A stretch of DNA of 64,000 nucleotides, from positions 62,001 to 126,000 of the IMG/VR virus record IMGVR_UViG_3300042691_036566. The stretch is one strand, 5' to 3'. Source of the DNA: an uncultured virus (IMG/VR IMGVR_UViG_3300042691_036566). Lineage: Duplodnaviria; Heunggongvirae; Uroviricota; Caudoviricetes. Positions 24,250 to 49,300 of the stretch are shown one piece after another. A model generated the notes under the pieces. It was given only the letters and a program-made list of their open reading frames with translations, was not told the origin of the DNA and ran no database searches. The translations under genes were made by a program, and so were the position numbers. Numbering within the stretch: the stretch's first letter is position 1; every line of letters starts with the position of its first letter.

Positions 24250-24302
24250 GTATTATTATATGAGCACTTTATTTAAAAAAATACATTTTATGTAGTACCA
24301 TT

Positions 24303-24335
24303 GGGGAAGTCGATTTTTTCGACTTCCCCTTTTTT
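24303..24335 (+). terminator. terminator-like hairpin
   Basis: GGGGAAGTCGA...TCGACTTCCCC + TTTTTT. Confidence 0.75.
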
Positions 24336-24355
24336 ATTCTAAGGACCAAAATCAA

Positions 24356-25698: not shown

Positions 25699-25986
25699 AT
25701 GGAGACAGCTTTAAAGGAAAAAGACTTTGAAAACCCGGATCTAAAATCTACAGTAAAAGTTGATAACGCCCTAAAAGAATTATTCGTAACTTATGTAGGC
25801 AATAAACTACAACCAAAAGATGATAATGTTACAGTCGAGATGATTGTAGATGTTTTAGCAGAAGAATTCCCAGAGTTTGTTTTAGCGTTGGCAGAAGAAA
25901 ATTTTATAAGAGGCTATAAGCAAGCAATTGCTGATGTTGAGTCAGCTGAAGTCAAGAAAAGTAAAAAAGCTAAAAGACGTAAGTAA
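25699..25986 (+). CDS. hypothetical protein
   Basis: AGGAG RBS. Confidence 0.75.
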   Translation: METALKEKDFENPDLKSTVKVDNALKELFVTYVGNKLQPKDDNVTVEMIVDVLAEEFPEFVLALAEENFIRGYKQAIADVESAEVKKSKKAKRRK

Positions 25987-26699: not shown

Positions 26700-27473
26700 A
26701 TGTCGCATATTTCATTTTCTGCACTAAAGGTTTGGAACGATTGTCCTTACAAGTTTAAACTCATCTATCAGGATGAAGTTAAGAAATTTTCTGGCTCTGA
26801 ATATACAGCATTTGGAACAGCACTACATGAAGCAGCTGAATTAAAAGTTCAGGACACTTCAGTAAACGAAGTAGAAATTTTCTTAAATAAGTTTGATAGT
26901 GAAATTAAAATTCTGAAAGAAAATTCATCAAAGATAGACGAAAAATTGCTTACGCAAATGCGTAAGCAGGGTGAAGATTTGTCTAAACAAATTCTTCCTG
27001 CATTACAAAATCACTTTGGTGAATTTAAAGTGCTTGCAGCAGAAGAAGATATTTATGAGGTAGTCGAATCAATACCAGAGCTAAATTATTCTTTTAAAGG
27101 TTTTATTGATCTTATTATCCAAACTTCTGATAATAAGATTCATATTATCGATTGGAAAAGTTGTGCTTGGGGTTGGGATGCAAAAAAGAAAAGTGATGCG
27201 ATGACAACGTATCAGCTAACGTTTTATAAGCATTTTTACGCTAAAAAACACAATGTGGATCCAAAAAATATTGAAACTCATTTTGCTCTCTTAAAGAGAA
27301 CTGCGAAAAAAGATAATATTGAAATCTTTAGGGTAACAAGTGGAACAGTAAAAACGCAAAATGCGTTTAAACTTTTGGATAAAGCCTTATATAATATCAA
27401 AGTTGGGATGTATCCAAAAAATAAATTAAACTGTAAAAACTGTGAATTCAAAAATACAGTCGAATGCCCATAA
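26700..27473 (+). CDS. PD-(D/E)XK Cas4/RecB-like exonuclease
   Basis: ISFS..CP, FGTALH, KGFIDL, IIDWKS, QLTFY, CKNC..CP. Confidence 0.88.
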   Translation: MSHISFSALKVWNDCPYKFKLIYQDEVKKFSGSEYTAFGTALHEAAELKVQDTSVNEVEIFLNKFDSEIKILKENSSKIDEKLLTQMRKQGEDLSKQILPALQNHFGEFKVLAAEEDIYEVVESIPELNYSFKGFIDLIIQTSDNKIHIIDWKSCAWGWDAKKKSDAMTTYQLTFYKHFYAKKHNVDPKNIETHFALLKRTAKKDNIEIFRVTSGTVKTQNAFKLLDKALYNIKVGMYPKNKLNCKNCEFKNTVECP

Positions 27474-27481
27474 GGATTAAA

Positions 27482-28462
27482 ATGAAGACAGCTATAGTTA
27501 CAGGAATAACAGGACAAGACGGTTCTTTTTTGGCTGAATTGCTGCTTAAAAACAATTATAAAGTAATTGGTCTAGTAAGAAGATCAGCCATGGAAGATAA
27601 GAAATATTATAATATTAATCATCTTTTAGATGATAAAAATCTAAAAATAGAAAATGGAGATGTAACAGATTCTTCTTCTATTTGGAGACTCGTATCTTGC
27701 TATAAGCCTGATGAATTCTATAATTTAGCTGCACAGTCCCATGTGGCCGCTTCGTTTACTTCTCCAGAAAGCACTTTAGAAATAAATACAACAGGGGTTT
27801 TAAATTGTCTAGAGGCAATTAGAAATCTATCTCCTTCTACAAAATTTTACCAAGCTAGTACAAGTGAAATGTATGGCGATAATAGTGCTGCTCCACAAAA
27901 TGAGCAGACACCATTTTCTCCTGTTTCTCCCTATGCCTGTGCTAAAGTTGCAGCCCATAACCTTGTGGTTAATTACCGCAAGGCTTATGGGCTTTTTTGT
28001 TGTTCTGGTATCCTTTTTAATCACGAAAGTGAAAGACGAGGAGAGCAATTCGTAACAAGAAAAATTACAAAAGCAGCTGCAAGGATTAAACTAGGACTTC
28101 AAAAAGAGTTAAGATTAGGAAATTTAGAAGCAAGAAGAGATTGGGGATACGCTCCTGAATATGTTAAAGGTATGTGGTTGATGTTACAAAATACAGCAGC
28201 TGATGACTTTGTTTTGGGAACTGGAAAAACTTATACAATTAAAGATTTTATTTCTTGCGTTTCTGAAATTGCTGGTTATAATCTAATGGAGTATGTAGTG
28301 ATAGATGATTCATTTAAGAGACCAAGTGAAGTACCACTACTACAAGCCAATCCGGCAAAAGCTAGAAATATTTTAAAATGGAATCCAGCTACAACATTGT
28401 CTCAATTAGCGGAAATAATGTATTTAAATGACTTAGAAAAGGAAACAATAAATGTTAGATAG
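27482..28462 (+). CDS. gmd: GDP-mannose 4,6-dehydratase
   Basis: TGITGQDGS, NLAAQSHV, YQASTSE, SPYACAK, LFNHES, FVTRKI. Confidence 0.95.
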   Translation: MKTAIVTGITGQDGSFLAELLLKNNYKVIGLVRRSAMEDKKYYNINHLLDDKNLKIENGDVTDSSSIWRLVSCYKPDEFYNLAAQSHVAASFTSPESTLEINTTGVLNCLEAIRNLSPSTKFYQASTSEMYGDNSAAPQNEQTPFSPVSPYACAKVAAHNLVVNYRKAYGLFCCSGILFNHESERRGEQFVTRKITKAAARIKLGLQKELRLGNLEARRDWGYAPEYVKGMWLMLQNTAADDFVLGTGKTYTIKDFISCVSEIAGYNLMEYVVIDDSFKRPSEVPLLQANPAKARNILKWNPATTLSQLAEIMYLNDLEKETINVR

Positions 28463-29693
28463 AAAATTAAAAGTATTTGTAATCTCTGATCATCTTTTAG
28501 CTCCTAGCGGAGTTGGAACTCAAACTAATTACATGGTAAATGGTTTGCTAAAGACTGGTAAATATCAATTTTTATGTTTTGGTGGCGCAGTTAAACATAG
28601 TGATTATAGACCAGTAAGATTTCAAGAACACGGAGAAGATTTAACCGTAATTCCAGTTGATGGCTATGGAACACCAGAACAAGTTAGAGCTGCTATTAGA
28701 GATTTTAAGCCTGATGTTATGTGGTTTATGACAGATCCAAGATTTTATGGCTGGTTATGGAATTTTGCTCAAGAAATTAGAGGAAACGTTCCAATGGTTT
28801 ATTACCATGTATGGGACAACTATCCATATCCAAAATTTAATCGTAAATTTTATCTATCAAATGATAAAATTGTAACGATCAGCAAATTAACAAGTGATAT
28901 CGTAAAAACTGTTTCACCAGAAGTTGAAGAAGAATATTTACCCCATGCCGTTAATACTGATTTTTATAAAATTTTAGATGAGTCTTCATATTCTGAATAT
29001 AGAGAAAAAAATAAAACATTATTCTTTTGGACTAATAGAAATGCTAGAAGAAAGATGAGCGGCTCTGTAGTTTGGTGGTTTAAAGAATTTTTAGATATAG
29101 TTGGACACGATAAGGCATTGTTATTAATGCATACGGATCCAAAAGATCCAAATGGACAAGACTTAGAAGCTATTGCAAAAGAAGTTGGATTAAGCAGAGA
29201 AAATTTTGCAATCTCTACTGCAAAAGTTCCTTTGGAGCATATGGCAAAATTTTATAATGCTGCTGATTGCACTATTAACGTAAGTGATGCGGAAGGTTTT
29301 GGTCTTTCCGTTCTAGAGTCTTTGTCTTGCGGAACACCAGTAATTGCTAATAGAACTGGTGGTATGCAGGATCAACTAACAGATGGAAATGAAACCTTTG
29401 GAGTATTAATAGACCCAGTTTCAAGGGCGGTTATTGGTAGTCAAGAAGTTCCGTATATTTATGAAGATAGAATTTCAAAAGAAGACTTTATATCGGCATT
29501 ATTAAAAATTCATAATATGACGAGAGAAGAAAGAAAAGAATTGGGAAGAAGGGGAAGTGAATTTGTGTCAAAGAATTTCAATTTTAAAGATTTTGTTCAA
29601 AGATGGGATAATGTTTTTGAAAAGGTATATGAAAAATATGGATCTTGGGAAACAAGAAAAAACTACAAAGCTTGGAGCATAAAGGAATATTAA
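28452..29693 (+). CDS. GT-B (GT4-like) glycosyltransferase
   Basis: RNARRK; EGFGLSVLESLSCGTPVI. Confidence 0.9.
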   Translation: MLDRKLKVFVISDHLLAPSGVGTQTNYMVNGLLKTGKYQFLCFGGAVKHSDYRPVRFQEHGEDLTVIPVDGYGTPEQVRAAIRDFKPDVMWFMTDPRFYGWLWNFAQEIRGNVPMVYYHVWDNYPYPKFNRKFYLSNDKIVTISKLTSDIVKTVSPEVEEEYLPHAVNTDFYKILDESSYSEYREKNKTLFFWTNRNARRKMSGSVVWWFKEFLDIVGHDKALLLMHTDPKDPNGQDLEAIAKEVGLSRENFAISTAKVPLEHMAKFYNAADCTINVSDAEGFGLSVLESLSCGTPVIANRTGGMQDQLTDGNETFGVLIDPVSRAVIGSQEVPYIYEDRISKEDFISALLKIHNMTREERKELGRRGSEFVSKNFNFKDFVQRWDNVFEKVYEKYGSWETRKNYKAWSIKEY

Positions 29694-29694
29694 T

Positions 29695-31656
29695 ATGAAG
29701 AAAAAAATAGTTATCACAGGACCAGTATTTAGTAGAAGTGGCTATGGAGAGATGGCAAGGTTTGCATTTAGATCTTTAAAAAATACATTAGACTATAATG
29801 ACCTATACATTATCCCTACAAATTGGGGAGGAAACGGAAATATTGCGGATAAAGATGAAGAGACAAGAGAGTTACATAAAATTTGTTTAGAGACCCATAA
29901 TTACATTGCGTCAACAAATAATAATCCAAATTTTGACATATCAGTTCAAATTTCAATTCCAAATGAATGGAAGCCAATAGCAGCTAAAAATATAGGCTAT
30001 ACAGCTGGTATAGAGACAAATAATATCTCCCCAGCATGGCTAAATCCCTCTAATCAAATGGATCAAATTATTGTTATTAGTGAGCACGCAAAGTCTTCAT
30101 TTATTAACACTATATTCTCAGATGACAAGGGCCAGAATTATAAAGTGGAAAAAAGAGTGGATGTTTGCCATTTTCCGGTAAGAGATTTTACTGTATCTCC
30201 AATAGAACTAGACCTTAAACACGATTTTAATTTTTTGTCTGTATGTCAGTGGGGTCCAAGAAAAAATTTAGAGCAAACAATTGTAGGATTTTTAGAAGAA
30301 TTTAAAAACGAAGAAGTTGGACTTGTATTAAAAATTAATATGACAAATGATTCTATCTTAGATAGAGAAACAGTTGATCAAAGATTACAAAATCTATTAT
30401 CTAGCCATAAAGATCGTAAATGTTCTGTTTATTTACTTCATGGGTACTTAACAGAATCTGAAATGGCTAGTTTGTATAGTAATCCAAAAATAAAAGCAAT
30501 AGTATCAACAACGCATGGAGAAGGATTTGGTTTTCCACTATTTGAAGCCACCACAAACGAACTACCTGTTGTAGCAACTGATTGGAGCGGGCATTTAGAT
30601 TTTCTTACAGTGGAAGATGAAGATGGCGCACAGAAAAAATTATTTGCAAAAGTAGACTATGAGTTAAAACCAATTGCTAAAGAGCATGTTTGGCAAGGAG
30701 TTTTAGAAGAGGGAACCAGTTGGGCTTACCCAGTACATAGAAGCTATAAGGCTAAATTAAGAGAAGTTTATAAAGACTATAATAGATTTAAGAGTTGGTC
30801 AAAGAAATTAAATAAAGCAGTCAGAGAGCAATTCACTGAAGAAAAAATGTATACAAGATTTTGTGAATTAGTTACTGGAGAGAAAAATCAAAAAGTTGAA
30901 ATTTCTGATCTTCCAAAAATATCTGTAATTACATCAGTGTACAACGGGGAAGAACATATTAAAGGATTTTTAGAGGACATAACTTCCCAAAGTATTTTTA
31001 AAGAAAAATGTGAACTAATTCTAGTCAACTGTAACTCACCAGAAAATGAAGAAGAAACAATAAATAAATATTTAGAACAGTATCCTGAAAATATTAAATA
31101 CATTAAGCTGGAGAAAGACCCAGGTATTTATGCCGCTTGGAATATTGCAATTAAAGAAGCTTCTGGTGAGTATATTACTAATGCTAATTTAGATGATCGT
31201 AAATTTCCAAATGCTCTTGAAGAATTAGCAAAAAAATTATATACAAGTCCGGAGATTGATGGGGTATATGCAAACAACTTAGTAACTAACAACGCTAATG
31301 AAACATGGGATAAAAATACTGCTAAATCAAATTATCCATCAGAACCATTTAGTGAAGAATCTATGTTAAGAGGAAATCCTTTGCATTGTATGCCAATGTG
31401 GCGTAAATCAATACATGATAAATATGGATATTTTGAAGAAAAATATCGTAGTGCAAGTGATTGGGAAATGTGGCTAAGATGCACTTTTGAAGGTTCTAAG
31501 TTTTTAAAGCTTAACAAAACTTTAGGATTGTATTATTTTAATCCTAAAGGAATGTCAACCAATCAAGATAATAATTCTTGGAAACGAAAAGAAGAAAAAG
31601 AAATCTTCCAAAAATATCTTGCTATTTTCCAAAAAAGGTTGACGCAAGCTGCGTAA
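29695..31656 (+). CDS. bifunctional GT4-like + GT2 glycosyltransferase
   Basis: GEGFGFPLFEA; KISVITSVYN..NANLDDR..SDWEMWLR. Confidence 0.9.
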   Translation: MKKKIVITGPVFSRSGYGEMARFAFRSLKNTLDYNDLYIIPTNWGGNGNIADKDEETRELHKICLETHNYIASTNNNPNFDISVQISIPNEWKPIAAKNIGYTAGIETNNISPAWLNPSNQMDQIIVISEHAKSSFINTIFSDDKGQNYKVEKRVDVCHFPVRDFTVSPIELDLKHDFNFLSVCQWGPRKNLEQTIVGFLEEFKNEEVGLVLKINMTNDSILDRETVDQRLQNLLSSHKDRKCSVYLLHGYLTESEMASLYSNPKIKAIVSTTHGEGFGFPLFEATTNELPVVATDWSGHLDFLTVEDEDGAQKKLFAKVDYELKPIAKEHVWQGVLEEGTSWAYPVHRSYKAKLREVYKDYNRFKSWSKKLNKAVREQFTEEKMYTRFCELVTGEKNQKVEISDLPKISVITSVYNGEEHIKGFLEDITSQSIFKEKCELILVNCNSPENEEETINKYLEQYPENIKYIKLEKDPGIYAAWNIAIKEASGEYITNANLDDRKFPNALEELAKKLYTSPEIDGVYANNLVTNNANETWDKNTAKSNYPSEPFSEESMLRGNPLHCMPMWRKSIHDKYGYFEEKYRSASDWEMWLRCTFEGSKFLKLNKTLGLYYFNPKGMSTNQDNNSWKRKEEKEIFQKYLAIFQKRLTQAA

Positions 31657-32318
31657 TGAAAAAAATAATTTCTTATTCTTTATGGGGAAATAATCCAAAG
31701 TATACAATTGGTGCTATAAAAAATGCAAACCTAGCCGAGAAATTTTATCCCGGCTGGGTTTGTCGTTTTTATTGTTCTAATAATGTTCCAAAAAATATAT
31801 TAGAGGAACTAGAAAAAAACTCAGAAGTAATAGTATGTAACGATAATCCTGATTGGACTTTTACAACAAAAAGATTTCTTCCTATGTCGGAAGATGGTAT
31901 AGAAAGAATAATTTTTCGAGATACAGATTCTAGATTTTCTAAAAGAGAAGTAGATGCCGTTAATGAATGGATAGGCTCAGAAAAATATTTACATATAATG
32001 AAAGATCATCCATATCATGGTAATTTTCCAATATTAGCTGGCATGTTTGGCATAGTTGGTGGGTTAATACCTGACGTAGAAAATTTACTTAATTTAGCTA
32101 AGAACGTCCCAGAGCAATATCACTATGATCAAATTTTTTTACAAAAATATATATGGAATATTTTTAAGAATAATTGCGTAATACACGATGAATTTTTTGT
32201 AAAAAATCCATTTCCAAGCAAAAGAGAAGAATATAATTTTGTTGGAGAACCTTTTAATCATGACGATACTGTATGTGATCCATCCCATAGAGAAATTTTA
32301 AAGGCGGCTATTAAATGA
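31656..32318 (+). CDS. putative GT-A-like glycosyltransferase
   Basis: IISYSLWG..FRDTDSR (DxD)..ILAGMFG..DQIFL. Confidence 0.6.
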   Translation: MKKIISYSLWGNNPKYTIGAIKNANLAEKFYPGWVCRFYCSNNVPKNILEELEKNSEVIVCNDNPDWTFTTKRFLPMSEDGIERIIFRDTDSRFSKREVDAVNEWIGSEKYLHIMKDHPYHGNFPILAGMFGIVGGLIPDVENLLNLAKNVPEQYHYDQIFLQKYIWNIFKNNCVIHDEFFVKNPFPSKREEYNFVGEPFNHDDTVCDPSHREILKAAIK

Positions 32319-32998
32319 AAAATGGTTATTTATTTCATCACCTTGGATTAGGTGATCACATAATTTGTAATGGTATGACAAGAGAATTATTAAAAACATA
32401 TGATACTATCGTGTATCCCGTTAAAAAACATAATTTGTTAAACGTCAAGGCAATGTTCAAAGATCTAGAGGATATAACTATCCTCCCAGTAGACGATGAT
32501 AATGATATGATAAAAAAATATCAGAGAGTATTCCTACCAATAAAAATTGGATGTTTTGAACAGCCTAATTTTATATTACGAAATGAGGATTTTTGTAAAG
32601 CATTTTATAGACAAAGTAATATTGATTATGAAAAAAGATGGGAAAGTTTTTATATTAATAGAGATAAAGAAAAAGAAAACTTACTTAGATCTGAAATAGG
32701 GCATAAATATATATTTGTTCACGATGATATCAGCAGAGGTCTTGTTATAAAAAATAATTTTAAACATAAAATATACCGGCCAAATCATATACTCGGAAAA
32801 GATTCACAAAATAGTATTTTTGATTATATTAAATTGATAGAGGATAGCGAAGAAATACATTGTATGGATAGTTCTTTTGCGGCCATGATTGATCATATCC
32901 CAGAATTAAAAGATAAGCCAAAGTTTATACATAGATATATAAGAAAAAATAATGCAAATCCATATTATAAAAATAATTGGGTAATATTAAATGAGTAA
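32315..32998 (+). CDS. putative GT-B-like transferase
   Basis: HHLGLGDHII..EIHCMDSSF. Confidence 0.55.
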   Translation: MKNGYLFHHLGLGDHIICNGMTRELLKTYDTIVYPVKKHNLLNVKAMFKDLEDITILPVDDDNDMIKKYQRVFLPIKIGCFEQPNFILRNEDFCKAFYRQSNIDYEKRWESFYINRDKEKENLLRSEIGHKYIFVHDDISRGLVIKNNFKHKIYRPNHILGKDSQNSIFDYIKLIEDSEEIHCMDSSFAAMIDHIPELKDKPKFIHRYIRKNNANPYYKNNWVILNE

Positions 32999-33386
32999 AA
33001 TTATCTTTACAAATGGATGTTTTGATATAATACATACTGGGCATATAAGATTATTAGAATACGCTAAAAGCTTAGGAGATTATCTAATAGTCGGCCTAAA
33101 TAGCGATGATAGTATTAAAAGATTAAAGGGTGAGACTAGACCCATAAATAAAGAAAAAGATAGAAAATATATTTTAGAATGTATTAGATTTGTAGACCAG
33201 GTTATAATTTTTGAAGAAGATACACCGTATAAACTTTTACAAAAAATAAAACCACATATTATAGTGAAAGGTGGAGATTACACTAAAGAAGAGGTTGTAG
33301 GAAATGACCTAGCTGAAGTTGTAATTTTTAAATATATAAATGGATATTCAACAACTAACATTATTAAAAATATTGGTAATAGGTGA
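32991..33386 (+). CDS. HldE/RfaE domain II-like adenylyl/cytidylyltransferase
   Basis: TNGCFDIIHTGH, VGLNSD, KGGDY, GYSTT. Confidence 0.88.
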   Translation: MSKIIFTNGCFDIIHTGHIRLLEYAKSLGDYLIVGLNSDDSIKRLKGETRPINKEKDRKYILECIRFVDQVIIFEEDTPYKLLQKIKPHIIVKGGDYTKEEVVGNDLAEVVIFKYINGYSTTNIIKNIGNR

Positions 33387-34113
33387 TTATTGTCAAGATG
33401 TATTTAAGTATGGAAAATGTGAAAGACTAAGCCCGGAAGCACCTGTCCCAGTGTTTTGTTTTGAGAGAGAGATAAAAACAGAAGGTATGTCTGGAAACGT
33501 TTATAAAAACTTGTTAGCGTTAAATGTACAGGCGCATTTAATTGTTTCTAACATGGATACGATTAAAGAAAGATATATTGATAGCAAGTCAAAGCAGCAC
33601 CTATTAAGAGTAGACTATGAAAAACAATCTGAAGAAATTAAAATTCCTAAAGAAAAATTAGATAAATATCATGCAATTATAGTATCTGACTATAATAAAG
33701 GATCTATAAATGAAAACAATATAAGATCCTTATTCAACTTTAGTGGTCCCATTTTCGTTGATTCAAAAAAGCCGGATTTACAAATTTTTGATCGTGAAAA
33801 TGTATTTGTAAAAATAAATCAAGATGAATACAATAGATCTAAATCCCTTCCTCAAAAAAATAGATTAATAGTTACCATGGGAGAAAAAGGCGCTTTATAT
33901 AATGGGAATATATATCCTAGTAAAAAGGTAGACGTATTTGATGTTAGTGGAGCTGGGGATACTTTTATAGCAGCTCTTTGTGTGCAATATTTATTAACTA
34001 ATTCTATATCAGAGGCTATAATATTTGCCAATCTATGCGCCTCCAGTGTTGTTAGTAAATCTGGGACTGCAATTATAAACTTTGAGGATGTTAAAAATGA
34101 CTTACGTTTTTGA
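33340..34113 (+). CDS. HldE/RfaE domain I-like PfkB sugar-phosphate kinase
   Basis: VIGD, RLSPEAPVPV, SDYNKG, DVSGAGDTF. Confidence 0.88.
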   Translation: MDIQQLTLLKILVIGDYCQDVFKYGKCERLSPEAPVPVFCFEREIKTEGMSGNVYKNLLALNVQAHLIVSNMDTIKERYIDSKSKQHLLRVDYEKQSEEIKIPKEKLDKYHAIIVSDYNKGSINENNIRSLFNFSGPIFVDSKKPDLQIFDRENVFVKINQDEYNRSKSLPQKNRLIVTMGEKGALYNGNIYPSKKVDVFDVSGAGDTFIAALCVQYLLTNSISEAIIFANLCASSVVSKSGTAIINFEDVKNDLRF

Positions 34114-34411
34114 TATAGATGGAACAATATGTACTTTAACAAATGGAAAGTACGAAGACGCAAAACCCTTTGTAGATAGGATTGAAAAAATTAACAAACT
34201 TTACGATGAGGGTCATAGGATAGTGATGTATACAGCTAGAGGAATGGATAGATATAATGGAGATGTTGATAGGGCTAATGAAAGATTTTTTTATTTTACT
34301 CTTGAACAATTGAAAAGTTGGGGTTTGAAATTTAGCTACCTAAAGCTAGGTAAGCCAGCCGCCGATTTCTACGTAGATGATAAGGGGTTTAAAGATGTTG
34401 ACTTCTTCTGA
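34097..34411 (+). CDS. minimal HAD phosphatase
   Basis: FDIDGT, YTARG, GKP..YVDD. Confidence 0.85.
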   Translation: MTYVFDIDGTICTLTNGKYEDAKPFVDRIEKINKLYDEGHRIVMYTARGMDRYNGDVDRANERFFYFTLEQLKSWGLKFSYLKLGKPAADFYVDDKGFKDVDFF

Positions 34412-34754
34412 GCAAATTTTTGTTCCCAAAGGATGGGGATTTGAAAAATGGATTACAAATAATAACAAATATTGCGGTAAGTTACTTTATTTTATAAAAG
34501 GAAAAAAATGCTCTTGGCATTATCATAAAGTAAAAGATGAAGTTTTTTATATTCAAAGTGGAAAATTAAAAGTTTTTTATGGGGATGATGACAATATTTT
34601 AAATGCAAATACTATTATTTTAGAAAAAGGCGATAGTTTTCATGTAAAAACGGGCCTAAGACATCAAATGGTTGCTTTACAAGATACAGAACTATTTGAA
34701 TTTTCTACTCAACATTTTGATGAGGATAGCATAAGGATAGAAAAAGGTGATTAA
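34395..34754 (+). CDS. cupin sugar isomerase-like
   Basis: KGWG, SWHYHKVKDE, GLRH. Confidence 0.8.
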   Translation: MLTSSEQIFVPKGWGFEKWITNNNKYCGKLLYFIKGKKCSWHYHKVKDEVFYIQSGKLKVFYGDDDNILNANTIILEKGDSFHVKTGLRHQMVALQDTELFEFSTQHFDEDSIRIEKGD

Positions 34755-35355
34755 ATTAGTTATCTTTGATATGGACGGCGTTTTAGTAGACGCATGTGAT
34801 TGGCATAGAATAGCTTTTAATTTAGCACTTAAGAATGTTTGTAATTATGAGCTATCCCTGGAAGAACACTATAAAGAATATAATGGTTTACCGACAAAAA
34901 TAAAATTAAAAAAATTAAAAGATAAAGGGATGGTCACAGAAAATTTATTTGATACCATAGAATCACTAAAACAAGAAAATACTATAAAATTAATAAATGA
35001 TCTTTGCGCGTATGATTCTTCTAAAGTAGAACTATTAAAATACTTAAAAGATAAAAATATTAAAATTGCTTGCTATACTAATAGCATAAGAAAAACTGCC
35101 GAATTGATCCTGAAAAAAGCAGGTGTTTTATCCTCGTTAGATAAACTGATCACAAATCAAGACGTTAATTCTCCAAAACCAAACCCAGAAGGTTATATAA
35201 ATTGTATTAATTTTTTTAATGTCTCTCCAAACGAAACTATAATAGTGGAAGATTCTCCAAAAGGAATTGAAGCAGCTTCTGGTGCCGGCGCTTTTATAAT
35301 AAAAGTCGATAATGCTAAACAGGTTAATATAGACCTTATGAAGGAATACATATGA
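34747..35355 (+). CDS. HAD phosphatase
   Basis: FDMDGVL, TNS, KPNP, EDS. Confidence 0.88.
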   Translation: MIKLVIFDMDGVLVDACDWHRIAFNLALKNVCNYELSLEEHYKEYNGLPTKIKLKKLKDKGMVTENLFDTIESLKQENTIKLINDLCAYDSSKVELLKYLKDKNIKIACYTNSIRKTAELILKKAGVLSSLDKLITNQDVNSPKPNPEGYINCINFFNVSPNETIIVEDSPKGIEAASGAGAFIIKVDNAKQVNIDLMKEYI

Positions 35356-36080
35356 ATATAGTTATACCGATGGTTGGTCTTGGGAAGAGATTTTTTGATG
35401 CGGGATATTTAGATCCAAAACCATTAATTAAAATAGAGGAAAAAACAATAGTTCAACACGCTATAGATAGTCTAGGAATAGAAGGACAATATATATTTGT
35501 AATTAGAAAAAGTAACTTTTCTGATAAGCTAAAAGATGTATTATATAATACTAAGCCCGACTCTATAATTATTGAAATTGATTATTTAACTGATGGTACA
35601 GTAAGCTCTATATTATTAGCAAAAGAATTTATAGATAATGATACAGAACTTATCACTACAAATTGTGATCAAAGAACTATCTGGGATAGTAACTTATTTT
35701 TAAATTCATGTCGAAGAAAAAATCTCGATGGCTGTGTTGCTACTTATCCTTATGATAATATAATAGTGGGAGAAAAGAGTCCTTATAGTTTTATAAAAAC
35801 AGATGAAAATAATTTAGGTCTACTGTTAGATGAAAAAACTGCTATTTCTAATTTGGCTTTATGCGGTATTCATTATTGGAGAAAAGGAAGCTATTTTGTA
35901 AACTCTGCGGTGGAATTGTTAAAAAACAATGATAGAGTTAATAATGAATTTTATGTATCTAAAACATATAATTATTTAATAAAAAAAGGTATGAACATAG
36001 GTTATCACTCTCTCAATAAGGGTGAATTTTATTCTTTAGGAACGCCGGAGGACATAAAAATTTATGAAAACAGAAAATAA
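35352..36080 (+). CDS. sugar-phosphate nucleotidyltransferase
   Basis: IPMVGLGKRF..PKPLI, NCDQ, NNEFYV, LGTPED. Confidence 0.88.
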   Translation: MNIVIPMVGLGKRFFDAGYLDPKPLIKIEEKTIVQHAIDSLGIEGQYIFVIRKSNFSDKLKDVLYNTKPDSIIIEIDYLTDGTVSSILLAKEFIDNDTELITTNCDQRTIWDSNLFLNSCRRKNLDGCVATYPYDNIIVGEKSPYSFIKTDENNLGLLLDEKTAISNLALCGIHYWRKGSYFVNSAVELLKNNDRVNNEFYVSKTYNYLIKKGMNIGYHSLNKGEFYSLGTPEDIKIYENRK

Positions 36081-36804
36081 AAAAATAGCATTAGTACTAA
36101 GCGGTCATTTAAGAACATATATGGATACATTTCTTAATTTAAAGAAAAATTTATTAGATTTATATGATTGTGATATATACATCTCCACCTGGAATAATAC
36201 GGATCATCTTACTGATTTTTATCACTCTGAAGAGTCTATGAAAAAATTATTATCTGTTTATTCTCCTTGGACTAAGGTGATAGTAATAAATGAATCTAGG
36301 GGTTTTTTTGAATACAATAAAAAAAATATAGAAATACATCCTACCAAATATGGAACTTGGAATACGGAAAATAGTCAATACAAAACATATCAAGGTGGAA
36401 ATGTACCAGAAGAGGCAGTAAATAGATTAACTTCGCAATGGTATGCTGTGTCTGAGGGTTTTAAATCTATAAAAAACTATGAAAAATATGATTTTCTTAT
36501 CAGAAGTCGATTTGATATTGATTTATTAAAGCCATTTAATTTTGTGGATGAAAAAATTGTCGTTGGAGATTCTTATGGAGTAGAAAATTATTACAATATA
36601 AGAGACTATATCGTATATATAAAACCTGAAGCTTTTGATATTATGAAAAATATCTATGCTTTGAGTATTGAAAATTTTAAAAAATATAATAATTTTTCTG
36701 CAGAAACCATGCTTGAATATACTTTAAAAAATAATGATCTAAAAATACCTTTAACAATAGATAATAATTTAAGATATGATTTAGAATATAGGCTTAAGAG
36801 ATGA
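36064..36804 (+). CDS. glycan-cluster hypothetical protein (WavE-like motifs)
   Basis: ALVLSGHLR, YISTW, YDFLIRSRFD. Confidence 0.6.
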   Translation: MKTENKKIALVLSGHLRTYMDTFLNLKKNLLDLYDCDIYISTWNNTDHLTDFYHSEESMKKLLSVYSPWTKVIVINESRGFFEYNKKNIEIHPTKYGTWNTENSQYKTYQGGNVPEEAVNRLTSQWYAVSEGFKSIKNYEKYDFLIRSRFDIDLLKPFNFVDEKIVVGDSYGVENYYNIRDYIVYIKPEAFDIMKNIYALSIENFKKYNNFSAETMLEYTLKNNDLKIPLTIDNNLRYDLEYRLKR

Positions 36805-37121
36805 AAATAGATAATATAAATAATATGTGGAGAGGTTGGATGGTAGGAAATTTCAATCCGAGCGTTTATAAAACTGACCTCTTTGAAGTTGGAATACTTA
36901 TTCATAAAAAAGGTGAAAAGTGGCCTAAACATTATCATAAAATTGCTACAGAAATTAACTGCTTAATTTCTGGTAAGATGGTAATATGCGGAAAAGAAAT
37001 CAACCCAGGTGATATTTTTATTCTTGAACCGCTAGAAATAGCAGATCCTGAATTTTTAGAAGATTGCAAAATAGTTGTTGTAAAAACAGCTTCTGTTCCA
37101 AATGATAAATATGAGGTATAA
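36801..37121 (+). CDS. cupin protein
   Basis: GWMVGNF, HYHKIATEIN. Confidence 0.8.
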   Translation: MKIDNINNMWRGWMVGNFNPSVYKTDLFEVGILIHKKGEKWPKHYHKIATEINCLISGKMVICGKEINPGDIFILEPLEIADPEFLEDCKIVVVKTASVPNDKYEV

Positions 37122-38012
37122 ATGACTAAAGATTTTTTATTTTTTTCTTATTCTTGGGTTGATAATGCAAATTTTTATTTCAAAAAATTTGAAGAATTAG
37201 GCTATAAGTGTGATTATGTATATGAAACAAACCTAGCAGATTTTAAGCCAGTACATGATTATCAAAATATTGTTTTATATCTTCATGAGTGGAATACTAT
37301 ACCAATAACTAATAAAATAATAGATACATATTATAGATTCTCTAATCTTATTCAACACGATGATACCGACTTTGAAGATATACAAATTTGGAGCAATAGA
37401 AAACCAGACTTAATAATGCATAGAGAGTTGACAGATAATTCAAAAAATCCATGGAAAAGCCCTGTATATGGATTTCATTTTCCTGTTGCTACAAAATATG
37501 ATCAAAGATTTCAATTAAAAGAGATCGATTTATCTTTTATAGGAAGAATGACTTCTGGAAGAAGGAAACCGTTTGTTGAGCACATTAAGCAACTATCAGT
37601 GAATGAGTTAAAAAATATGAACTGGCATATTGATGTTGATGATCATGTAGGTGTAGCTGATAAAATTACTAAAAAATATACAGAAGTTATAAATTCTTCA
37701 AAAATAGGACTAAATTATTTTGGTAATTCTTATGACTCTAAAAGAACTTGGGAATTGGCAAGTACAAAATGCGCTATAATAATGCCAAAATTAAAACTAA
37801 AATCTACATCAAAAGATGGTATACTATTCGATAGTTATATAGAAATAAGAGATGATTTTCAGGATTTAAAAGAAAAAATACTTTACACAATGGAAAATAA
37901 GAGATATATTGACTATGGAGAAGCTGCGTATGAATCTTACACAAAGTTTCACACTCCCGAAAAATGCTTCGAAAAATATTATGAAATTGTAAAAAATATT
38001 TTACAATTATGA
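37122..38012 (+). CDS. GT-B glycosyltransferase (CgeB-like C-terminus)
   Basis: DLSFIG, SSKIGLN, RTWE. Confidence 0.7.
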   Translation: MTKDFLFFSYSWVDNANFYFKKFEELGYKCDYVYETNLADFKPVHDYQNIVLYLHEWNTIPITNKIIDTYYRFSNLIQHDDTDFEDIQIWSNRKPDLIMHRELTDNSKNPWKSPVYGFHFPVATKYDQRFQLKEIDLSFIGRMTSGRRKPFVEHIKQLSVNELKNMNWHIDVDDHVGVADKITKKYTEVINSSKIGLNYFGNSYDSKRTWELASTKCAIIMPKLKLKSTSKDGILFDSYIEIRDDFQDLKEKILYTMENKRYIDYGEAAYESYTKFHTPEKCFEKYYEIVKNILQL

Positions 38013-38019
38013 GGAAAAT

Positions 38020-39213
38020 ATGAAATTTAATATTTTTACTAGTGAGTTGGATTACGAGAAATATTATATAGCAAAATATAAAATTAAGTCAAAAACTAAT
38101 TTAAAGGATGCTGCTTGGAATTTAGCAATCGGACAAAGCGTTGGCAATCCAAATGTTAGAAACGAATGGGAAACTGAAGAATTGTTTCAAAATCATTCTT
38201 GCCTTATTTTACATTCAGAATCAGAATTGAGCGAAAAAACTGAAGGTGAAGTAAATATTGCATTTCCTGTTGCAAACAATGACTGGCAATCTGATGGAAT
38301 TTCTCACATGATATGCCAATTAATGGGTGGTCATGTTGATATAGATATAGTTGAAAGATGTAGATTAATTGATTTAAAATTACCTAAATCTGTTACAGAC
38401 AATTTTTTAGGTCCAAAATTTGGAATCAGTGGATTTAGGAATTTTACAGGACAATATAATAAACCCCTGTTCGGAAGTATTGTTAAGCCAAAAATTGGAG
38501 TAACTCCATATATTTTACTAGAAATGGTAAAACAAATGGTTGATGGTGGTGCCGACTTTATCAAAGAAGATGAAATCATGAGCAACCCAGTGGTGGCTCC
38601 TCTTGAAAAAAGAGTAGAGATTGTTTCAAATTATCTAGCAAGCCAAAACCGTAAAGTTGTTTTCTGTCACACCATAAATTGTGATCCACATATTCTTGTA
38701 GATAGAGTAAAAAGAGTATATGAATTAGGAGGAAATGGTGTACATATTAACGTGTTTAGCGGCTTAGGTTCTTATAATAGCATAAGAAAATTAAATCTAC
38801 CTTTATTTTTACACTATCAGAGTAGCGGCGCAAAAGTTTTTACAGAGAAAGATCATAAATACAGTATTTCTTGGAAGGTTATGTGTTATTTAGCTACTTT
38901 AATGGGCGTTGATACCATCCAAACTGGTATGATTGGTGGATATAGTAATGACGATCCAGAAGAAATTTTAGAATGTATCTCAACTTTAAGAAATGGAAAC
39001 ACACTCCCAGCATTAAGTTGTGGTATGCACCCAGGGTTAGTGGAGTATGTAACTTCAAAAGTTGGTATTGACTATCTAGCAAATGCGGGTGGTGCTGTCC
39101 ATGGTCATCCTAATGGTACAATTTCTGGTGCTATGGCAATGAGACAGTCAATTGATAAAAATTATAAATCTGAATATAATATAGCTATAGAAAAATGGGG
39201 ATTGGTAAAATAA
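38020..39213 (+). CDS. RuBisCO-like protein (form IV type)
   Basis: FLGPKFGISG, GSIVKPKIG, GGADFIKEDE, PALSCG, AGGAVHGHPNG. Confidence 0.92.
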   Translation: MKFNIFTSELDYEKYYIAKYKIKSKTNLKDAAWNLAIGQSVGNPNVRNEWETEELFQNHSCLILHSESELSEKTEGEVNIAFPVANNDWQSDGISHMICQLMGGHVDIDIVERCRLIDLKLPKSVTDNFLGPKFGISGFRNFTGQYNKPLFGSIVKPKIGVTPYILLEMVKQMVDGGADFIKEDEIMSNPVVAPLEKRVEIVSNYLASQNRKVVFCHTINCDPHILVDRVKRVYELGGNGVHINVFSGLGSYNSIRKLNLPLFLHYQSSGAKVFTEKDHKYSISWKVMCYLATLMGVDTIQTGMIGGYSNDDPEEILECISTLRNGNTLPALSCGMHPGLVEYVTSKVGIDYLANAGGAVHGHPNGTISGAMAMRQSIDKNYKSEYNIAIEKWGLVK

Positions 39214-39821
39214 TGAAAAAATGGCAATCTGATTTATTAAGAGACATAAGATTTAATGATTCAAGAGATGATTCAGATCTTCCTCTAAGTGAAACAACTG
39301 ATGTATATTATGATGGACAAAATGGTGAATTTACTCCATGCAATCATGAAAGCTTAAAAAAATATTTTTTAACAGTTAAAGATAGATGTAGAGCTATTTT
39401 AGAGATAGGAATTGCTAGAAGTGAATTTGGTAGTTCATATACACTTGTAAAAAACAAAAACAAAGACTGTGTATATATTGGAGTAGATATCAGAGATTGT
39501 TCATTTTTGAATGACGAAGAGAATAATGTTTATACTCTTCAAACAAAATCTGAAAATTATTCTGAAATATTAGAATTCATAAAATCTAAAGGAGTTGAGG
39601 AAATAGATTTTATTTTTATAGATGGTTGGCATAGTATAAATCAAGTATATGCAGAGTGGGAATTTACAAACTTATTATCCGAATATGGAATTGTTGGATT
39701 TCACGATACGAACAACCATCCAGGACCAAAACTGTTTGTCCAAAATTTAAATTTTGATTGGGTAGTTCAGAAAGAATGTTTAACAGATCATGGAATTTCT
39801 TTTGTATGGAAAAAACAGTAA
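39213..39821 (+). CDS. class I SAM methyltransferase (Methyltransf_24-like)
   Basis: ILEIG, IDFIFIDGWH, VGFHD. Confidence 0.85.
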   Translation: MKKWQSDLLRDIRFNDSRDDSDLPLSETTDVYYDGQNGEFTPCNHESLKKYFLTVKDRCRAILEIGIARSEFGSSYTLVKNKNKDCVYIGVDIRDCSFLNDEENNVYTLQTKSENYSEILEFIKSKGVEEIDFIFIDGWHSINQVYAEWEFTNLLSEYGIVGFHDTNNHPGPKLFVQNLNFDWVVQKECLTDHGISFVWKKQ

Positions 39822-40591
39822 TAATTCAAGGCGAAATACAAAATAATATGGTGCAGAGATCCATAAACCAAATAAGGGAATGGTTTGATGGAGAATTAAT
39901 AATATCAACTTGGGAAGGACAAAATAATAATTTAAGCGGATATGATAAAATATTATTTTGTAAAGATCCCGGACCTGGGCCTTTTAATGGTTTATTGCCT
40001 GTACAACAACATTGCAATCTAAAAAGACAGTTATATGGGCTTAAAAAAGCACTAGAAGAAAGTTCAAATGATCTTATATTCAAGATAAGAAATGATTGTT
40101 TGGTAACTAAAAATATTTTTAGTTATTTTAATTTTGAAAAAGCATTTGGAGAATATAAAATCTTTGATAGTAAAGTAGTGGTCAGTAATATGATGACCAT
40201 AAACCCAGACTCCACATCAGAACCAAAACCTTGGTTTAGAATTTCTGATTGGTTTTATTTAGGCATGAAAGAAGATATTAAAAAAATTTGTGATGTATAT
40301 GATGACTTAGAGAAAACAGACTTTTCTAATTCTTTTTTTGGAACTGAACATATATTATCTTTTAATCTGATAAAAAAATATATCTACAAGGATTTAACCC
40401 TAGAAGACTACATAACTCTGACAAGAGATTCGTGGAAATATATATTAAACAACTATAAGGTTATAGATACAAAAAGCACTGCAGGTATTATAAATATTGG
40501 AAAATGGATTAATCAACCAGAATATTTATCATGTTATTTAACAGAAGAACAATACAAAGAAAGAATTTCTGATGAAAATTATATCACATAG
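39806..40591 (+). CDS. WavE-like LPS/glycan synthesis protein
   Basis: VIIQG, IISTW, DPG, NLKRQ, KIRND, ISDWFYLG. Confidence 0.8.
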   Translation: MEKTVIIQGEIQNNMVQRSINQIREWFDGELIISTWEGQNNNLSGYDKILFCKDPGPGPFNGLLPVQQHCNLKRQLYGLKKALEESSNDLIFKIRNDCLVTKNIFSYFNFEKAFGEYKIFDSKVVVSNMMTINPDSTSEPKPWFRISDWFYLGMKEDIKKICDVYDDLEKTDFSNSFFGTEHILSFNLIKKYIYKDLTLEDYITLTRDSWKYILNNYKVIDTKSTAGIINIGKWINQPEYLSCYLTEEQYKERISDENYIT

Positions 40592-40985
40592 AGGAAATTT
40601 AAATGGCATAGAAAGAAATCTGGAAAACAATCCAGATAGGATCTTAGAAGTAATAAAAAAATTTGAAGTTGAAGTAGATGTTTGGTATGTAAATAATAAA
40701 TGGTTTTTAGGACACGATTTACCAACATACGAAGTAACAAATTTTTTCTTTAGCAATAAAATGTGGCTACATGCTAAAAATTTTGATGCTTGTATCAGAC
40801 TGAAAAATACTGAGTTAAATTGGTTTTGGCATGAAAATGATAAAATTACTTTAACTAGTAAAAATTATTTATGGTGTTTTCCTGGTGTTTATATACAAGA
40901 TGGGATTACGGTAGAATTTGGACACAACAAAAACCTACCTAAAAATATATTAGGGGTATGTACCGATTTTCCTGAATTATATTAG
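40572..40985 (+). CDS. minimal PLC-like phosphodiesterase
   Basis: ISHRGN, EN, EVDVW, LGHD, WLHAKN, GVCTD. Confidence 0.75.
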   Translation: MKIISHRGNLNGIERNLENNPDRILEVIKKFEVEVDVWYVNNKWFLGHDLPTYEVTNFFFSNKMWLHAKNFDACIRLKNTELNWFWHENDKITLTSKNYLWCFPGVYIQDGITVEFGHNKNLPKNILGVCTDFPELY

Positions 40986-40994
40986 AGGAATTAT

Positions 40995-41939
40995 ATGATT
41001 ATTATAACTGGCGGCTCTGGATTACTTGGAAGTGCATTTAAAAAAATATTACCGGATGCTCTCTATCCAACACATAAAGAATTAAACTTAGAAAACTATG
41101 ATGATACTCATCGATATTTTGATAATTTTAATGAATTCTCCGAATCAAAAATAAAAGCAGTAATACATTTAGCAGGAAAGGTTGGAGGAGTAAAAGCAAA
41201 TACTCGCTATATTTCTGATTTTTATAACACAAACTCTGAGATAAATAACAACATTATTCAATCTTGTATATTTACAGATGTCCCAAAGTTAATTTGTTGT
41301 CTATCAACGTGTATATACCCAGACGAAAAATATGTAAATTATCCACTAACTGAAGATCAGCTTCATAATGGCCCTCCACATGATTCAAATTTTGGATATG
41401 CTTATGCAAAACGTATGGTTGATGTTCAATTAAAAGCAGCAAATCAACAATACAGTACAGAATATATATCAGTTATTCCAAACAACATGTATGGAGAACA
41501 TGATAATTTTGATCTTGAGAATGGTCATGTTATCCCATCTTTAATCCGTAAAATCTGGGAGGCAAAAATTAATAATAAACCATCGTTTGAAGTTTGGGGT
41601 GATGGTGAAGTTTATCGTGAGTTTACTTATGCTGAAGATATTGCTAAAGCGATAAAATTCTTATTAGATAATAATTATACCGGAGATCCAGTAAATATTG
41701 GATCTACTAAAGAATACAAATTAAAAGATGTTATTACTTTAATTTCTAAAGAATTAGAATATAATGGTGATATAACGTATGATAATAAAAAACCAAAAGG
41801 ACAAATTCGTAAACCAACTTCTAATAAAAAATTTCTAGATTTAGGATGGAAAGAAGAAACGTATACAAGTTTAGAAGTAGGGATAAAGAAGACTTGTGAC
41901 TGGTTTAAAAAAAATTATCCAAATATAAGAGGAGTATAA
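40995..41939 (+). CDS. fcl: GDP-L-fucose synthase
   Basis: TGGSGLLG, LAGKVGG, LSTCIYP, YAYAKR, HVIPSL, WGDG..REF. Confidence 0.92.
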   Translation: MIIITGGSGLLGSAFKKILPDALYPTHKELNLENYDDTHRYFDNFNEFSESKIKAVIHLAGKVGGVKANTRYISDFYNTNSEINNNIIQSCIFTDVPKLICCLSTCIYPDEKYVNYPLTEDQLHNGPPHDSNFGYAYAKRMVDVQLKAANQQYSTEYISVIPNNMYGEHDNFDLENGHVIPSLIRKIWEAKINNKPSFEVWGDGEVYREFTYAEDIAKAIKFLLDNNYTGDPVNIGSTKEYKLKDVITLISKELEYNGDITYDNKKPKGQIRKPTSNKKFLDLGWKEETYTSLEVGIKKTCDWFKKNYPNIRGV

Positions 41940-46374: not shown

Positions 46375-49300
46375 ATGTCTAACAGCCCAGATAGATACGC
46401 TAGATTAAATAAAAATAATAGATTACCATATAGAGAAGAAAAGCCAACTCATATTTTATCAGTTGGATCGATTGTATACTATGATTTTGATAGTATAGTT
46501 AACCAAGATTTAACACAGCCAGTTGTTGAAAGATTTTCTAATTCAGACACTAAATTTTCAGTGTTGCCAGATTTTAATACTGAAACACCAGTATCAAATA
46601 TGGAAGAAGAAGAGATAATTTTTGACGAACTTACAGACGAAGAATTAAAAGGTCTTACATTCCCAGACGCTCAACCACAAGAGCCTTATGCTGCTGATTT
46701 GGGGATTGATAATAATTTATCATCTACAGAAACACAAGAATTTTCATTTCCAAAAACTGTTGCAAATACAGTAATTGATAGAAGAGAATCTGAAGGTTTA
46801 TATGGTGCAATACCCACAACAACAGATTTAATATCTCAAACTTTCTTTAATGAAACTTTGGGACCACCTAGAGAAGCAGAGCAAACCGAGGTTGAATATT
46901 CAGTTACCATAGTAGAAGATTTTATCGGCATTCTTGGATTGTTTAGTAAAGTGTCTTTAATGTTAGATTCTGGCCCTATTGAATTTTTTGTAAGAAGAAA
47001 CCAGCTTACTCCAATTGAAGGATTAGAATATAGCTTTTTAAAGCCAGTAGAAATACCTAGGATTGGTTATTTACAGGAAACAGATATAATTGGATGGTCT
47101 GATAAAAAACCATTTATTGTTTATTATGATGAAAGGAGTGAATTGTATTACTGTTCAGTAGAAGCGGAATATGATGGCCTTGAACTTACTGATGAAAAAA
47201 TACAAAAATATGTTGAAGATGCTTATTTCACCGGCTTAAGATTAATTTTTAAATCTAACGCTAAGAAAAACTCTGAAGATTATATAAAACAAATGTCTGA
47301 TAGATTTTATCTATTCGGATATGCTAGAGATTGGGCTATAAAACTTAGACCTTGTTCAAATTTTTATACACTTGTAGTGTTTCCTAAAAAATATCTATCT
47401 TCTACTGATTTAATTGATTATAGAGCAGATCCACTACAAGCTGCTAAAGATGGAGTTACTGGTGGCCTATTAGATCCCTCAGTAAATCCAGAAGATATTA
47501 AATACATAGTAACTTATAGTTTTTTAAACTATAATAGCTTTGCTGAAACTATAAAAGATATATCTAAAATTTTAGCTAGTAGAGGAGAGGAGCAATTTAA
47601 TTTTGCCTTAAAAGCAGCTGATCAGTACATGGGTGCTTTAACGGCTGACAATTATTTAGAGTTGATAGAATTAGATTTAAGAAAAGAAGCTAAAAAATTC
47701 TATGATAAAGATAATGTAGGAAACTTTTTAATAACTATTAAAAAATTATTAGAAATAAATACCATAGAACATGATGTTTTATATACAGATGCTACAAAAA
47801 ATAATATAGCTTTTGGATTGACAGATCAATTTAATATAGCATATATAGATATCGTTAGAGATGGTATAGCACAAACTTTTGTAATTGATGGGTATATATT
47901 TGAAAATGAATTTGGAAGTTATGGGGTTATATCAAATAGAAGCGGCTTCTTTTTATATAACTACTGTACATATAAAATTATTACCGATTTAGCAACATAT
48001 GAAGGAGAATGGAATAAAGAGCTTAGAAATAATTTAGATATCGATAAGTATATAGAAAAATTTGTTATTCCACAGCCAAAAGAAATAGATATCCCTAAAA
48101 GAGATTTTGATTGTGCAAAAAATAACATGAAAAAACTTTGGGAAGATGGAATTATAAAAGGTTATAATTCAATAAAAGCCGTAGCACCTGTTGCAGAAGC
48201 TAACTTTAAAAAACAACTAGCTTATGCTAGAGGCGGCAAAAGAAGATGGATAGATTTTGATGCAGAAGCAGACAAACAGGCAGCATCAACTCCAGCAGCT
48301 ACTTTACCAACAACAGATCCTGAACCTCCTACCTTTGGTGATGATACCCTTAGTGCAATTAAAAATGCTGGTTATGGAGATTGGAGTAAACCTGGTCCTG
48401 CTGCTTTGCATCTTCTCAAAAAAACTCTAAGAGAGACAAACTTTCAGAGAGCTTTATTACAACAAATTATTTGTTGGATAAGGGATGCAAATAATCAACA
48501 AGCATTGGCTAATTTAGATTCACAATTTAATAGTGATTTAAAAAAAAGGATACAAGAAGCTTTAACTAAATTTTTCTGCACTCCTTTCATGGATATGTTA
48601 ATTAAAGCTTTAGCTGCTTACAAAGTTCCAAAATTTAATCCTTCTGATATGTCAAAAGCCTTAAGAGATGCGTATGTTACTGCATTATCACAAGCTATAA
48701 TTGAAACTTTCAATATTGCTATAAAAGAGCTTATAAAACTTATGGCTAATTGTTCAAAACAAGGACAAGGCAAAAATTCTCCTTTTACTTCAGATCAAGA
48801 ACTAGGTCTTTCTGCAGCACTAGATGCAATTTTAGATAATCAAGATAATCCTTTTTCTAATAGTTCTATTGCGGACATATATGGAGCAATGGGGCTTCCT
48901 ACAGGAAATTCTGATGAAGACATACAAGAAAGAGAGAGAGCAAAAGAAGACTTAAAAAATTTAATTGCAGATATTGCATGTCTTATGAATCCTACAGAGA
49001 TTTGTAGATTGATTGCAGAAGGTACAGCAACAGATGATATTTTATCTTTGGTCAGAGCTATAATAGAAGCTAAGTATCCAAATATATCATCAGTACTAAA
49101 AACCAGATCTGAAGTGGAATACTTATTTCAAAAATTAGGACAGATTTTAAATATTTCAGACGTGTGCAAAAAATTAGGAGATCAAATAGCTCAAGAAAAT
49201 ACCAATATTTGTTCTACGGAATCTGCTACAAAAGCATTAAAAGATGCTCTAGCACAAAACGGCCTAACACCAGAACAAATTGAGGGTTTAATTGCTGATG

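Follow-up and report, generated by a model that had tools for sequence, protein, structure and literature searches.

The 64,000-nucleotide stretch analysed here, hereafter the window, comes from an uncultured virus of the class Caudoviricetes and is part of a linear IMG/VR record (IMGVR_UViG_3300042691_036566) of 126,749 bases that is ~70% complete. On its plus strand lies an intact gene for a RuBisCO-like protein (RLP), set in a cassette of genes that all overlap or abut (gaps of 0-7 bp), as a preliminary description of this DNA had indicated when it called the neighbours tightly coupled. The cassette reads as follows:

34747..35355, + strand: HAD-IA phosphatase, beta-PGM/YqaB-like (Pfam HAD_2, E 5.5e-31; TIGR02009 best, below its cut-off)
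35352..36080, + strand: sugar-phosphate nucleotidyltransferase (NTPT; GT-A, 4EVW-like), core partner of the RLP (Pfam NTP transferase, E 1.3e-4)
36064..36804, + strand: 246-aa protein, candidate sugar transferase (no Pfam match; the relative L070 matches DUF7796, E 3e-10)
36801..37121, + strand: small cupin, candidate epimerase or isomerase (cupin matches; H44, H46 and E51 invariant)
37122..38012, + strand: glycosyltransferase (GT)-like protein, accessory (PF13524, E 1.6e-5)
38020..39213, + strand: RLP of a phage-rich Form IV-like clade, intact, 397 aa
39195..39821, + strand: class I S-adenosylmethionine (SAM) methyltransferase, Methyltransf_24-like (E 5e-4, below cut-off; a relative, E 3.4e-7)
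39758..40591, + strand: WavE family protein, accessory candidate transferase (PF07507, E 7e-22; likely start ATG at 39806)
40572..40985, + strand: miniature GDPD-fold phosphodiesterase (mini-GDPD), core partner (7e0v, E 1e-4; model predicted local distance difference test (pLDDT) score 97)

The neighbours named in the preliminary description are all present, except that it listed several WavE-like proteins and only one WavE open reading frame (ORF) was found. The 246-aa ORF at 36064 was considered as a second WavE gene and rejected, since it matched nothing in Pfam and BLAST showed no likeness between it and the WavE ORF. The likely start of the methyltransferase is an ATG that overlaps the RLP stop at 39213.

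Both domains of the RuBisCO large subunit are present in the RLP (PF00016, E 1.9e-33; PF02788 also matched), and its AlphaFold model (mean pLDDT 89) superposes on RLP and RuBisCO chains, best on 2oem (Z 43.0, root-mean-square deviation (rmsd) 2.2, 366 residues aligned). The protein scored far under every NCBIfam cut-off that we tried. Assignment to the bona fide RuBisCO forms I-III was rejected (159 bits against 497 for TIGR03326, with E60, N123, H294, R295, H327 and K334 absent), as was assignment to OiaX, the 3-oxo-isoapionate-4-phosphate decarboxylase (141 bits against a cut-off of 700, K334, H294 and R295 absent, no adjacent four-carbon acid sugar kinase).

Residue positions are given in spinach numbering followed by the numbering of the window RLP, and catalytic roles are assumed from the spinach positions. 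The RLP keeps K175 (K156), K177 (K158), K201 (K182), D203 (D184), E204 (E185), S379, G381, G403 and G404; E60 has become G38, T65 N43, N123 G104, H327 Q301, K334 Y308 and G380 C334. An automatic alignment misplaced positions 294-298 and offered H265 as the equivalent of H294; because the sister protein P0137 and deep members without a 2-residue insertion show the register, we assign that position to Q267, with R295 and H298 replaced by S268 and A271. The corrected alignment agrees with the preliminary description, which held that K175/K177 and the KEDE carbamate/Mg motif were kept and that E60, N123, H294/R295, H327 and K334 were missing. In a clade alignment of 79 rows, 5 of which are the window's own gene, every kept residue is invariant, positions 60, 65, 123, 334 and 380 are G, N, G, Y and C throughout, and position 294 is always Q. 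The clade varies at position 295 (K in 35 rows, S in 44), position 298 (D in 33, A in 44) and position 327 (H in 29, Q in 50), and the P2 site is lost in 44/79 rows, including that of the window. Six invariant residues are clade-specific: Q39, N43, D107, Q267, Y308 and C334. In RuBisCO, the kept residues carry out enolisation and bind the P1 phosphate. Read through this mechanism, the residue pattern suggests that carboxylation has been lost, as has the P2 site in the window's subclade; a retained carbamate/Mg motif (K182/D184/E185) with substituted carboxylation residues is the pattern of a Form IV protein.

The top 120 relatives of the RLP are all at least 72% identical to it, and 55 viral loci carry the gene. 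Genome relatives came from an alignment-based scan of genome contigs (a single-sequence scan matched none), and the best 80 matches divide into 18 close (39-58% identity) and 62 distant ones (24-32%). Close cellular holders include four SAR11 records, candidate phyla radiation (CPR) bacteria with a Beckwithbacterium, DPANN archaea, Elusimicrobium and the actinomycete Nonomuraea (cultured holders are Nonomuraea rosea JCM 17326 and Ca. Pelagibacter Uisw_094), and some of the 'cellular' loci resemble phage contigs binned into metagenome-assembled genomes, such as L068 with its gp32, helicase and RNA ligase genes. Annotated phage records, 50,697 in all, gave no match to the RLP, and no RNA holder was listed; plasmid matches were distant (about 30% identity or less among the best 15 of 374). 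Two of the 401 genomes of the G001 family, which are largely incomplete, have the gene, G001 itself being one. In one viral locus (L047:8001-9146) the RLP is present as two ORFs of 155 and 212 aa.

In a FastTree phylogeny, MtnW, OiaX and the bona fide forms lie outside a single branch (support 99) made up of 55 rows, the Beckwithbacteria protein L066 among them. The phylogenetic check proposed in the preliminary description thus groups the clade with neither MtnW nor OiaX. The clade most probably corresponds to the 'Form IV-like' group that Jaffe et al. 2019 described, which in the available text comprises about 80 phage sequences and Beckwithbacteria and whose function was left unclear (PMC6389311). 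A further mark of that group is its position as outgroup to all other RLPs; the present tree, which lacks most reference clades, puts the clade next to RLPs that are uncharacterised, and its deep support is weak (83-88). Both are phage-dominated and divergent, with altered key residues and a Beckwithbacteria member (L066, 49% identity). Compared with the group as that text describes it, the clade reported here also has members in SAR11, DPANN archaea, Elusimicrobia and an actinomycete, and a sugar-activation cassette is conserved in it; the terms 'glycosyl', 'nucleotidyltransferase' and 'polysaccharide' do not occur in the main text of PMC6389311.

Conservation of the cassette was assessed in 51 distinct RLP loci and 35 distinct RLP-less nucleotidyltransferase loci, after collapsing at 90% identity. 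The NTPT was found in 48 of the 51 RLP loci, and lay no more than 1.5 kb from the RLP in 62 of 71 loci. The cupin is RLP-associated (36/51 RLP loci vs 5/35 RLP-less loci), and the methyltransferase was found in 22/51 vs 2/35; the mini-GDPD (35/51 and 27/35) and the 246-aa/DUF7796-like family (20/51 and 16/35) occur in both kinds of locus. Rare in the 51 RLP loci were HAD-IA and BcbF-like phosphatases (5 each) and WavE and GT-like proteins (3 each). The neighbourhood whose conservation the preliminary description wished to see checked is therefore conserved, most of all for the NTPT, but in a smaller core than was listed there, and the HAD, WavE and GT-like genes fall outside it. Beside the 62 distant RLPs, neither NTPT, cupin nor phosphodiesterase was present at any locus. 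One protein, P0122, is a fusion of RLP and NTPT, and in P0149 a mini-phosphodiesterase appears, by eye, ahead of the RLP N-terminus. Other RuBisCO-family fusions, seen among P0173, P0154 and P0165, join a TIR domain to an RLP and an IF-2B-family isomerase to a form III-like RuBisCO.

The cellular loci place the cassette in comparable surroundings. In SAR11 it is surrounded by O-antigen ligase, GT9/heptosyltransferase and gmd genes, and adjoins the 23S gene in L061 and lies inside the 5S gene in L059; we take the rRNA-gene interval of SAR11 to be its O-chain island. CPR holders carry the cassette in GT2 clusters. We conclude that, within glycan gene clusters, this intact RuBisCO-fold protein is firmly tied to a sugar nucleotidyltransferase. 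The linkage (48/51 against 0/62) and the P0122 fusion support the suggestion, made in the preliminary description, of a biosynthetic RLP coupled to the NTPT in such loci.

The phosphatase showed a different distribution. HAD-IA is present in 5/51 RLP loci and in 32/35 RLP-less loci, mostly fused to the NTPT; the other three RLP-less loci have a C-terminal HAD-type domain, and hence a phosphatase-type domain is found in 35/35. Among 78 viral loci fetched by NTPT, 72 had a HAD gene, 3 an RLP and none both. A HAD motif I of any sort was found in only 2 of the 67 RLP loci that lack HAD-IA, despite the longer flanks of the RLP loci. We conclude that HAD and the RLP are usually alternatives, not partners. 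The HAD gene of the window, which abuts the NTPT, resembles a split version of the common HAD-NTPT fusion and is regarded as accessory. Both genes also occur in L037, L045/L046, L061 and L219, and in L139 with the HAD fused; these loci may be intermediates, or the RLP may add a step in them instead of replacing one. A third cassette type (L143, L180, L224, L139) combines a cupin with an NTPT that bears a C-terminal HAD-type domain, and has no RLP except in L139, which holds the closest relative of the window enzyme (61%). In annotated phage records, the HAD-type NTPT had matches in 20 of 50,697, 19 of them Synechococcus phages. In a 50-row tree the RLP-less NTPTs fell into two lineages, both with phosphatase fusions, RLP-less lineages having arisen twice; a single grouping of all RLP-less NTPTs was rejected (approximately unbiased test, p 0.00145). 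Most RLP-linked NTPTs were on a branch of their own (support 93-94). The SAR11-type RLP-linked NTPTs, nested inside the HAD-fused group in the first tree, are sister to that group in the later one, and the nested placement was dropped.

The partner proteins indicate what kind of chemistry the cassette may perform. The only close structure for the NTPT is 4evw, a nucleoside-diphosphate-sugar pyrophosphorylase (E 6.3e-15; profile E 8e-35). The small cupin keeps HxH..E, with no fourth His seen, and the methyltransferase is probably a sugar O-methyltransferase, judging from its sequence. In the mini-GDPD, H6, E34, D36 and H48 (two catalytic His and the E-x-D metal ligands) are invariant in 31/31 sequences, which places it in the GDPD family, and nearly all of its top fold matches belong to that family (best Z 10.1, rmsd 3.2, 130 residues aligned).

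A link to ketoses comes from relatives of the NTPT in other systems. Plasmids carry the NTPT family together with HAD, GDPD-like and WavE genes, frequently two or three times over; one from Citrobacter has it with a true BcbF (166.5 bits, cut-off 162), a 514-aa NTP-transferase/APH-kinase protein and WavE. In the available part of PMC13552107, P. multocida type B mutants in bcbE and bcbG no longer have the fructose side chain, and the role of bcbF is a predicted one. The BcbE/BcbF/BcbG module of this type B capsule and the HAD-NTPT-phosphodiesterase cassettes of cyanophages and plasmids resemble the window cassette in joining the same NTPT family to a BcbF-type or HAD-IA phosphatase, a phosphodiesterase and WavE, and differ from it in that no RLP was seen in the regions viewed. 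For the RLP step, the working model is the R. rubrum RLP, a 5-methylthioribulose 1-phosphate (MTRu-1-P) 1,3-isomerase that converts a pentulose 1-phosphate to pentulose 5-phosphates and back, with a cupin methylsulfurylase coming after it (PMC6302742, available text). It offers a monophosphate substrate, an enediolate carbonyl shift and a cupin partner; it differs in serving salvage from methylthioadenosine without a nucleotidyltransferase, and this comparison is by description, not by sequence.

Taking the RLP and the phosphatase as two routes to the ketose monophosphate used by the NTPT is the simplest reading that joins the exchange with the ketose facts. From the observed sequence, fold, residues, linkage, fusion and exclusivity, we infer every reaction, substrate and target of the pathway that follows. 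On our preferred reading, to which we give a probability of roughly 0.45, the RLP would be a Mg/carbamate enediolate isomerase that feeds the NTPT a ketose monophosphate. It would perform a 1,3 carbonyl shift, the R. rubrum reaction reversed, by which D-xylulose or D-ribulose 5-phosphate from the host would become a pentulose 1-phosphate. This product would sit in the conserved P1 site and could cyclise to a furanose without the help of a phosphatase; RLP-less cassettes would obtain an equivalent NTPT substrate when their HAD phosphatase dephosphorylates a ketose bisphosphate. The NTPT would then activate the ketose monophosphate, and the mini-GDPD would process a phosphodiester, possibly via a 1,2-cyclic phosphate that puts phosphate on the anomeric carbon. 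The cupin and the methyltransferase may tailor the sugar, and the DUF7796/WavE-like proteins may transfer it to a glycan, which in the phage could belong to the virion, the host surface or the DNA. The full route, in which an RLP carbonyl walk to a C1-phosphate, the NTPT and a cyclising mini-phosphodiesterase would give an activated ketofuranose, the RLP standing in for the phosphatase, strikes us as doubtful when taken whole.

Several points weigh against an RLP that supplies the NTPT in place of a phosphatase. Under pure replacement there would be no need for both RLP and HAD at one locus, yet 6 of 150 NTPT-bearing loci, the window's among them, have both, and three of the 51 RLP loci (L043, L062 and the truncated L071) have no NTPT. 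The two sets of loci were gathered with different anchors and are not independent. The NTPT trees were made by quick searches and their inner support is weak (80-84), and the group put to the approximately unbiased test was named after the first tree. Because K/R295 and H327 are kept in outer members of the clade, their substrate may carry a second anion. A ketose as the substrate class of the NTPT is indicated indirectly, through one plasmid and BcbF, and the RLP tree was built without an R. rubrum-type isomerase sequence.

The same residues and gene associations allow other readings. Enolisation followed by reprotonation, which the kept residue set permits, would also suit a C3 epimerase or a 2-to-3 ketose isomerase that diversifies the sugar by acting on a ketose 1-phosphate supplied by a phosphatase of the host or the cassette. 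The co-occurrence of RLP and phosphatase in the window, L037, L045/L046, L061, L219 and L139 agrees with this, as does the separate branch of most RLP-linked NTPTs, which suggests a different substrate; yet a phosphatase in 35/35 RLP-less loci and none in most RLP loci is left unexplained, and we think such an enzyme unlikely. That the RLP excludes two kinds of HAD almost completely might instead mean that it removes phosphate itself, as a direct substitute for HAD, either by beta-elimination from the enediolate or by hydrolysis. RuBisCO variants without the loop-6 lysine are known to eliminate phosphate as a side reaction. The elimination product would, however, be a deoxy-diulose, unlike that of a phosphatase, and the four RLP reaction types given in the available part of PMC10176493 include no phosphatase; this substitution seems improbable. 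The preliminary description had favoured an unusual, possibly branched sugar, which the RLP could make by carboxylation, transcarboxylation or skeletal rearrangement. RLPs do act on branched substrates in apiose and hamamelose catabolism, in the portions of the literature available, and the clade-specific invariants Q39, N43, D107, Q267, Y308 and C334 could serve new chemistry. The replacement of E60, N123, H294 and K334 in 79/79 rows speaks against a branched product formed by carboxylation; K334, which OiaX and its relatives keep, is Tyr in all of them. OiaX and related catabolic enzymes share with the proposed enzyme the action of an RLP on a sugar monophosphate, but OiaX retains H294, R295 and K334 and adjoins a four-carbon acid sugar kinase. 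As the exchange of RLP with phosphatases would also go unexplained, we consider a branching enzyme likewise improbable.

The best PDB matches of the RLP are MtnW enzymes, and the trio of RLP, HAD and cupin parallels MtnW, MtnX and MtnD (MtnC being, in the sources available, a HAD alternative to MtnW), so that a methionine-salvage-like enolase recycling SAM by-products has to be weighed. MtnW of Bacillus and Geobacillus (2oej/2oem) is the best match in both sequence and fold, and it too has Gly at position 60 and no P2 site. Identity is, however, only ~28%, NCBIfam scores were 164 and 138 bits against cut-offs of 409 and 513.6, and the window RLP, which keeps K177, lacks H294 and has Gly (G104) for the lysine at position 123 that is presumably the MtnW base. 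It also lies in a separate clade, its constant partner is a nucleotidyltransferase, and, as the preliminary description held, salvage genes are lacking: MtnA (PF01008), the class II aldolase MtnB (PF00596) and ARD/MtnD (PF03079) had no matches in the ~70% complete record. We regard salvage as barely credible here. Alternatively, the RLP could be a passenger in a mobile glycan island, or act on host carbon metabolism independently of its neighbours, and the absence of the NTPT from two long-flanked loci (L043, L062) could be read in this way. Linkage in 48/51 loci across phages, bacteria and archaea, the gene fusion, and the absence of cassette neighbours beside all 62 distant RLPs make this very improbable.

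The cassette forms the second half of a glycan island, a densely packed plus-strand run at 27464-41939, of which the remaining parts are:

27464..34754, + strand: upstream part of the island, with GDP-mannose dehydratase (from 27464), GT4, GT4-GT2 and two unknown ORFs
within 27464..34754, + strand: upstream part, continued, with HldE-like adenylyltransferase and kinase, BcbF-like phosphatase and a second cupin
40995..41939, + strand: GDP-fucose synthase-like epimerase/reductase, the last gene of the island

Within the upstream part, 32991-34754 is a second sugar-activation block, with a split HldE-like adenylyltransferase/kinase, the BcbF-like phosphatase and the cupin; no SIS isomerase was seen there. 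The window also holds baseplate wedge genes (PHROG, E 3.5e-14 and 3.4e-21), and very long structural-region ORFs (2226 aa; >2429 aa) lie on either side of them at 46375-64000. A phage-encoded tmRNA, tRNA-Gly and tRNA-Ala are found at 19675-19963, 21345-21419 and 21978-22051; two ORFs in their vicinity look by eye like ClpP (20353-20946) and a GH19-type lysin (18790-19392). The stretch at 2000-8000 is GC-rich (43-50% vs ~31%) and contains two paralogous small ORFs (4081-4467 and 6460-6837) with a long N-terminal motif in common. An ORF with HExxH at 25986-26669, with a Pfam ATLF match below cut-off (E 1.7e-4), is probably a zincin-type phage metallopeptidase. Outside the window, G000 C1:10489-13926 and 23533-25110 resemble, by eye, DNA polymerase III alpha and GroEL.

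That phages have such an RLP clade is already published (Jaffe et al. 2019); what appears to be new here is the conserved cassette and the proposed biosynthetic role. The cassette, a biosynthetic RLP role and a ketose donor route were not found in the literature searched, which did not extend to subscription papers or to Fig. S1 of Jaffe et al., a display of genomic context that may show these neighbours. In the available portions of reviews, RLPs have roles in salvage or catabolism. The cassette, the fusion protein and the phosphatase exchange turn the question of the clade's function into a small coupled assay. If the proposal is true, the RuBisCO fold would serve anabolism in the synthesis of surface glycans, a phage gene annotated as RuBisCO in a virome should not be taken to fix carbon, and a route to activated ketofuranose donors may lie in the wider cassette family. 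Should the full route also be true, it would be a donor route for ketofuranose side branches common to phages, SAR11, CPR bacteria and DPANN archaea.

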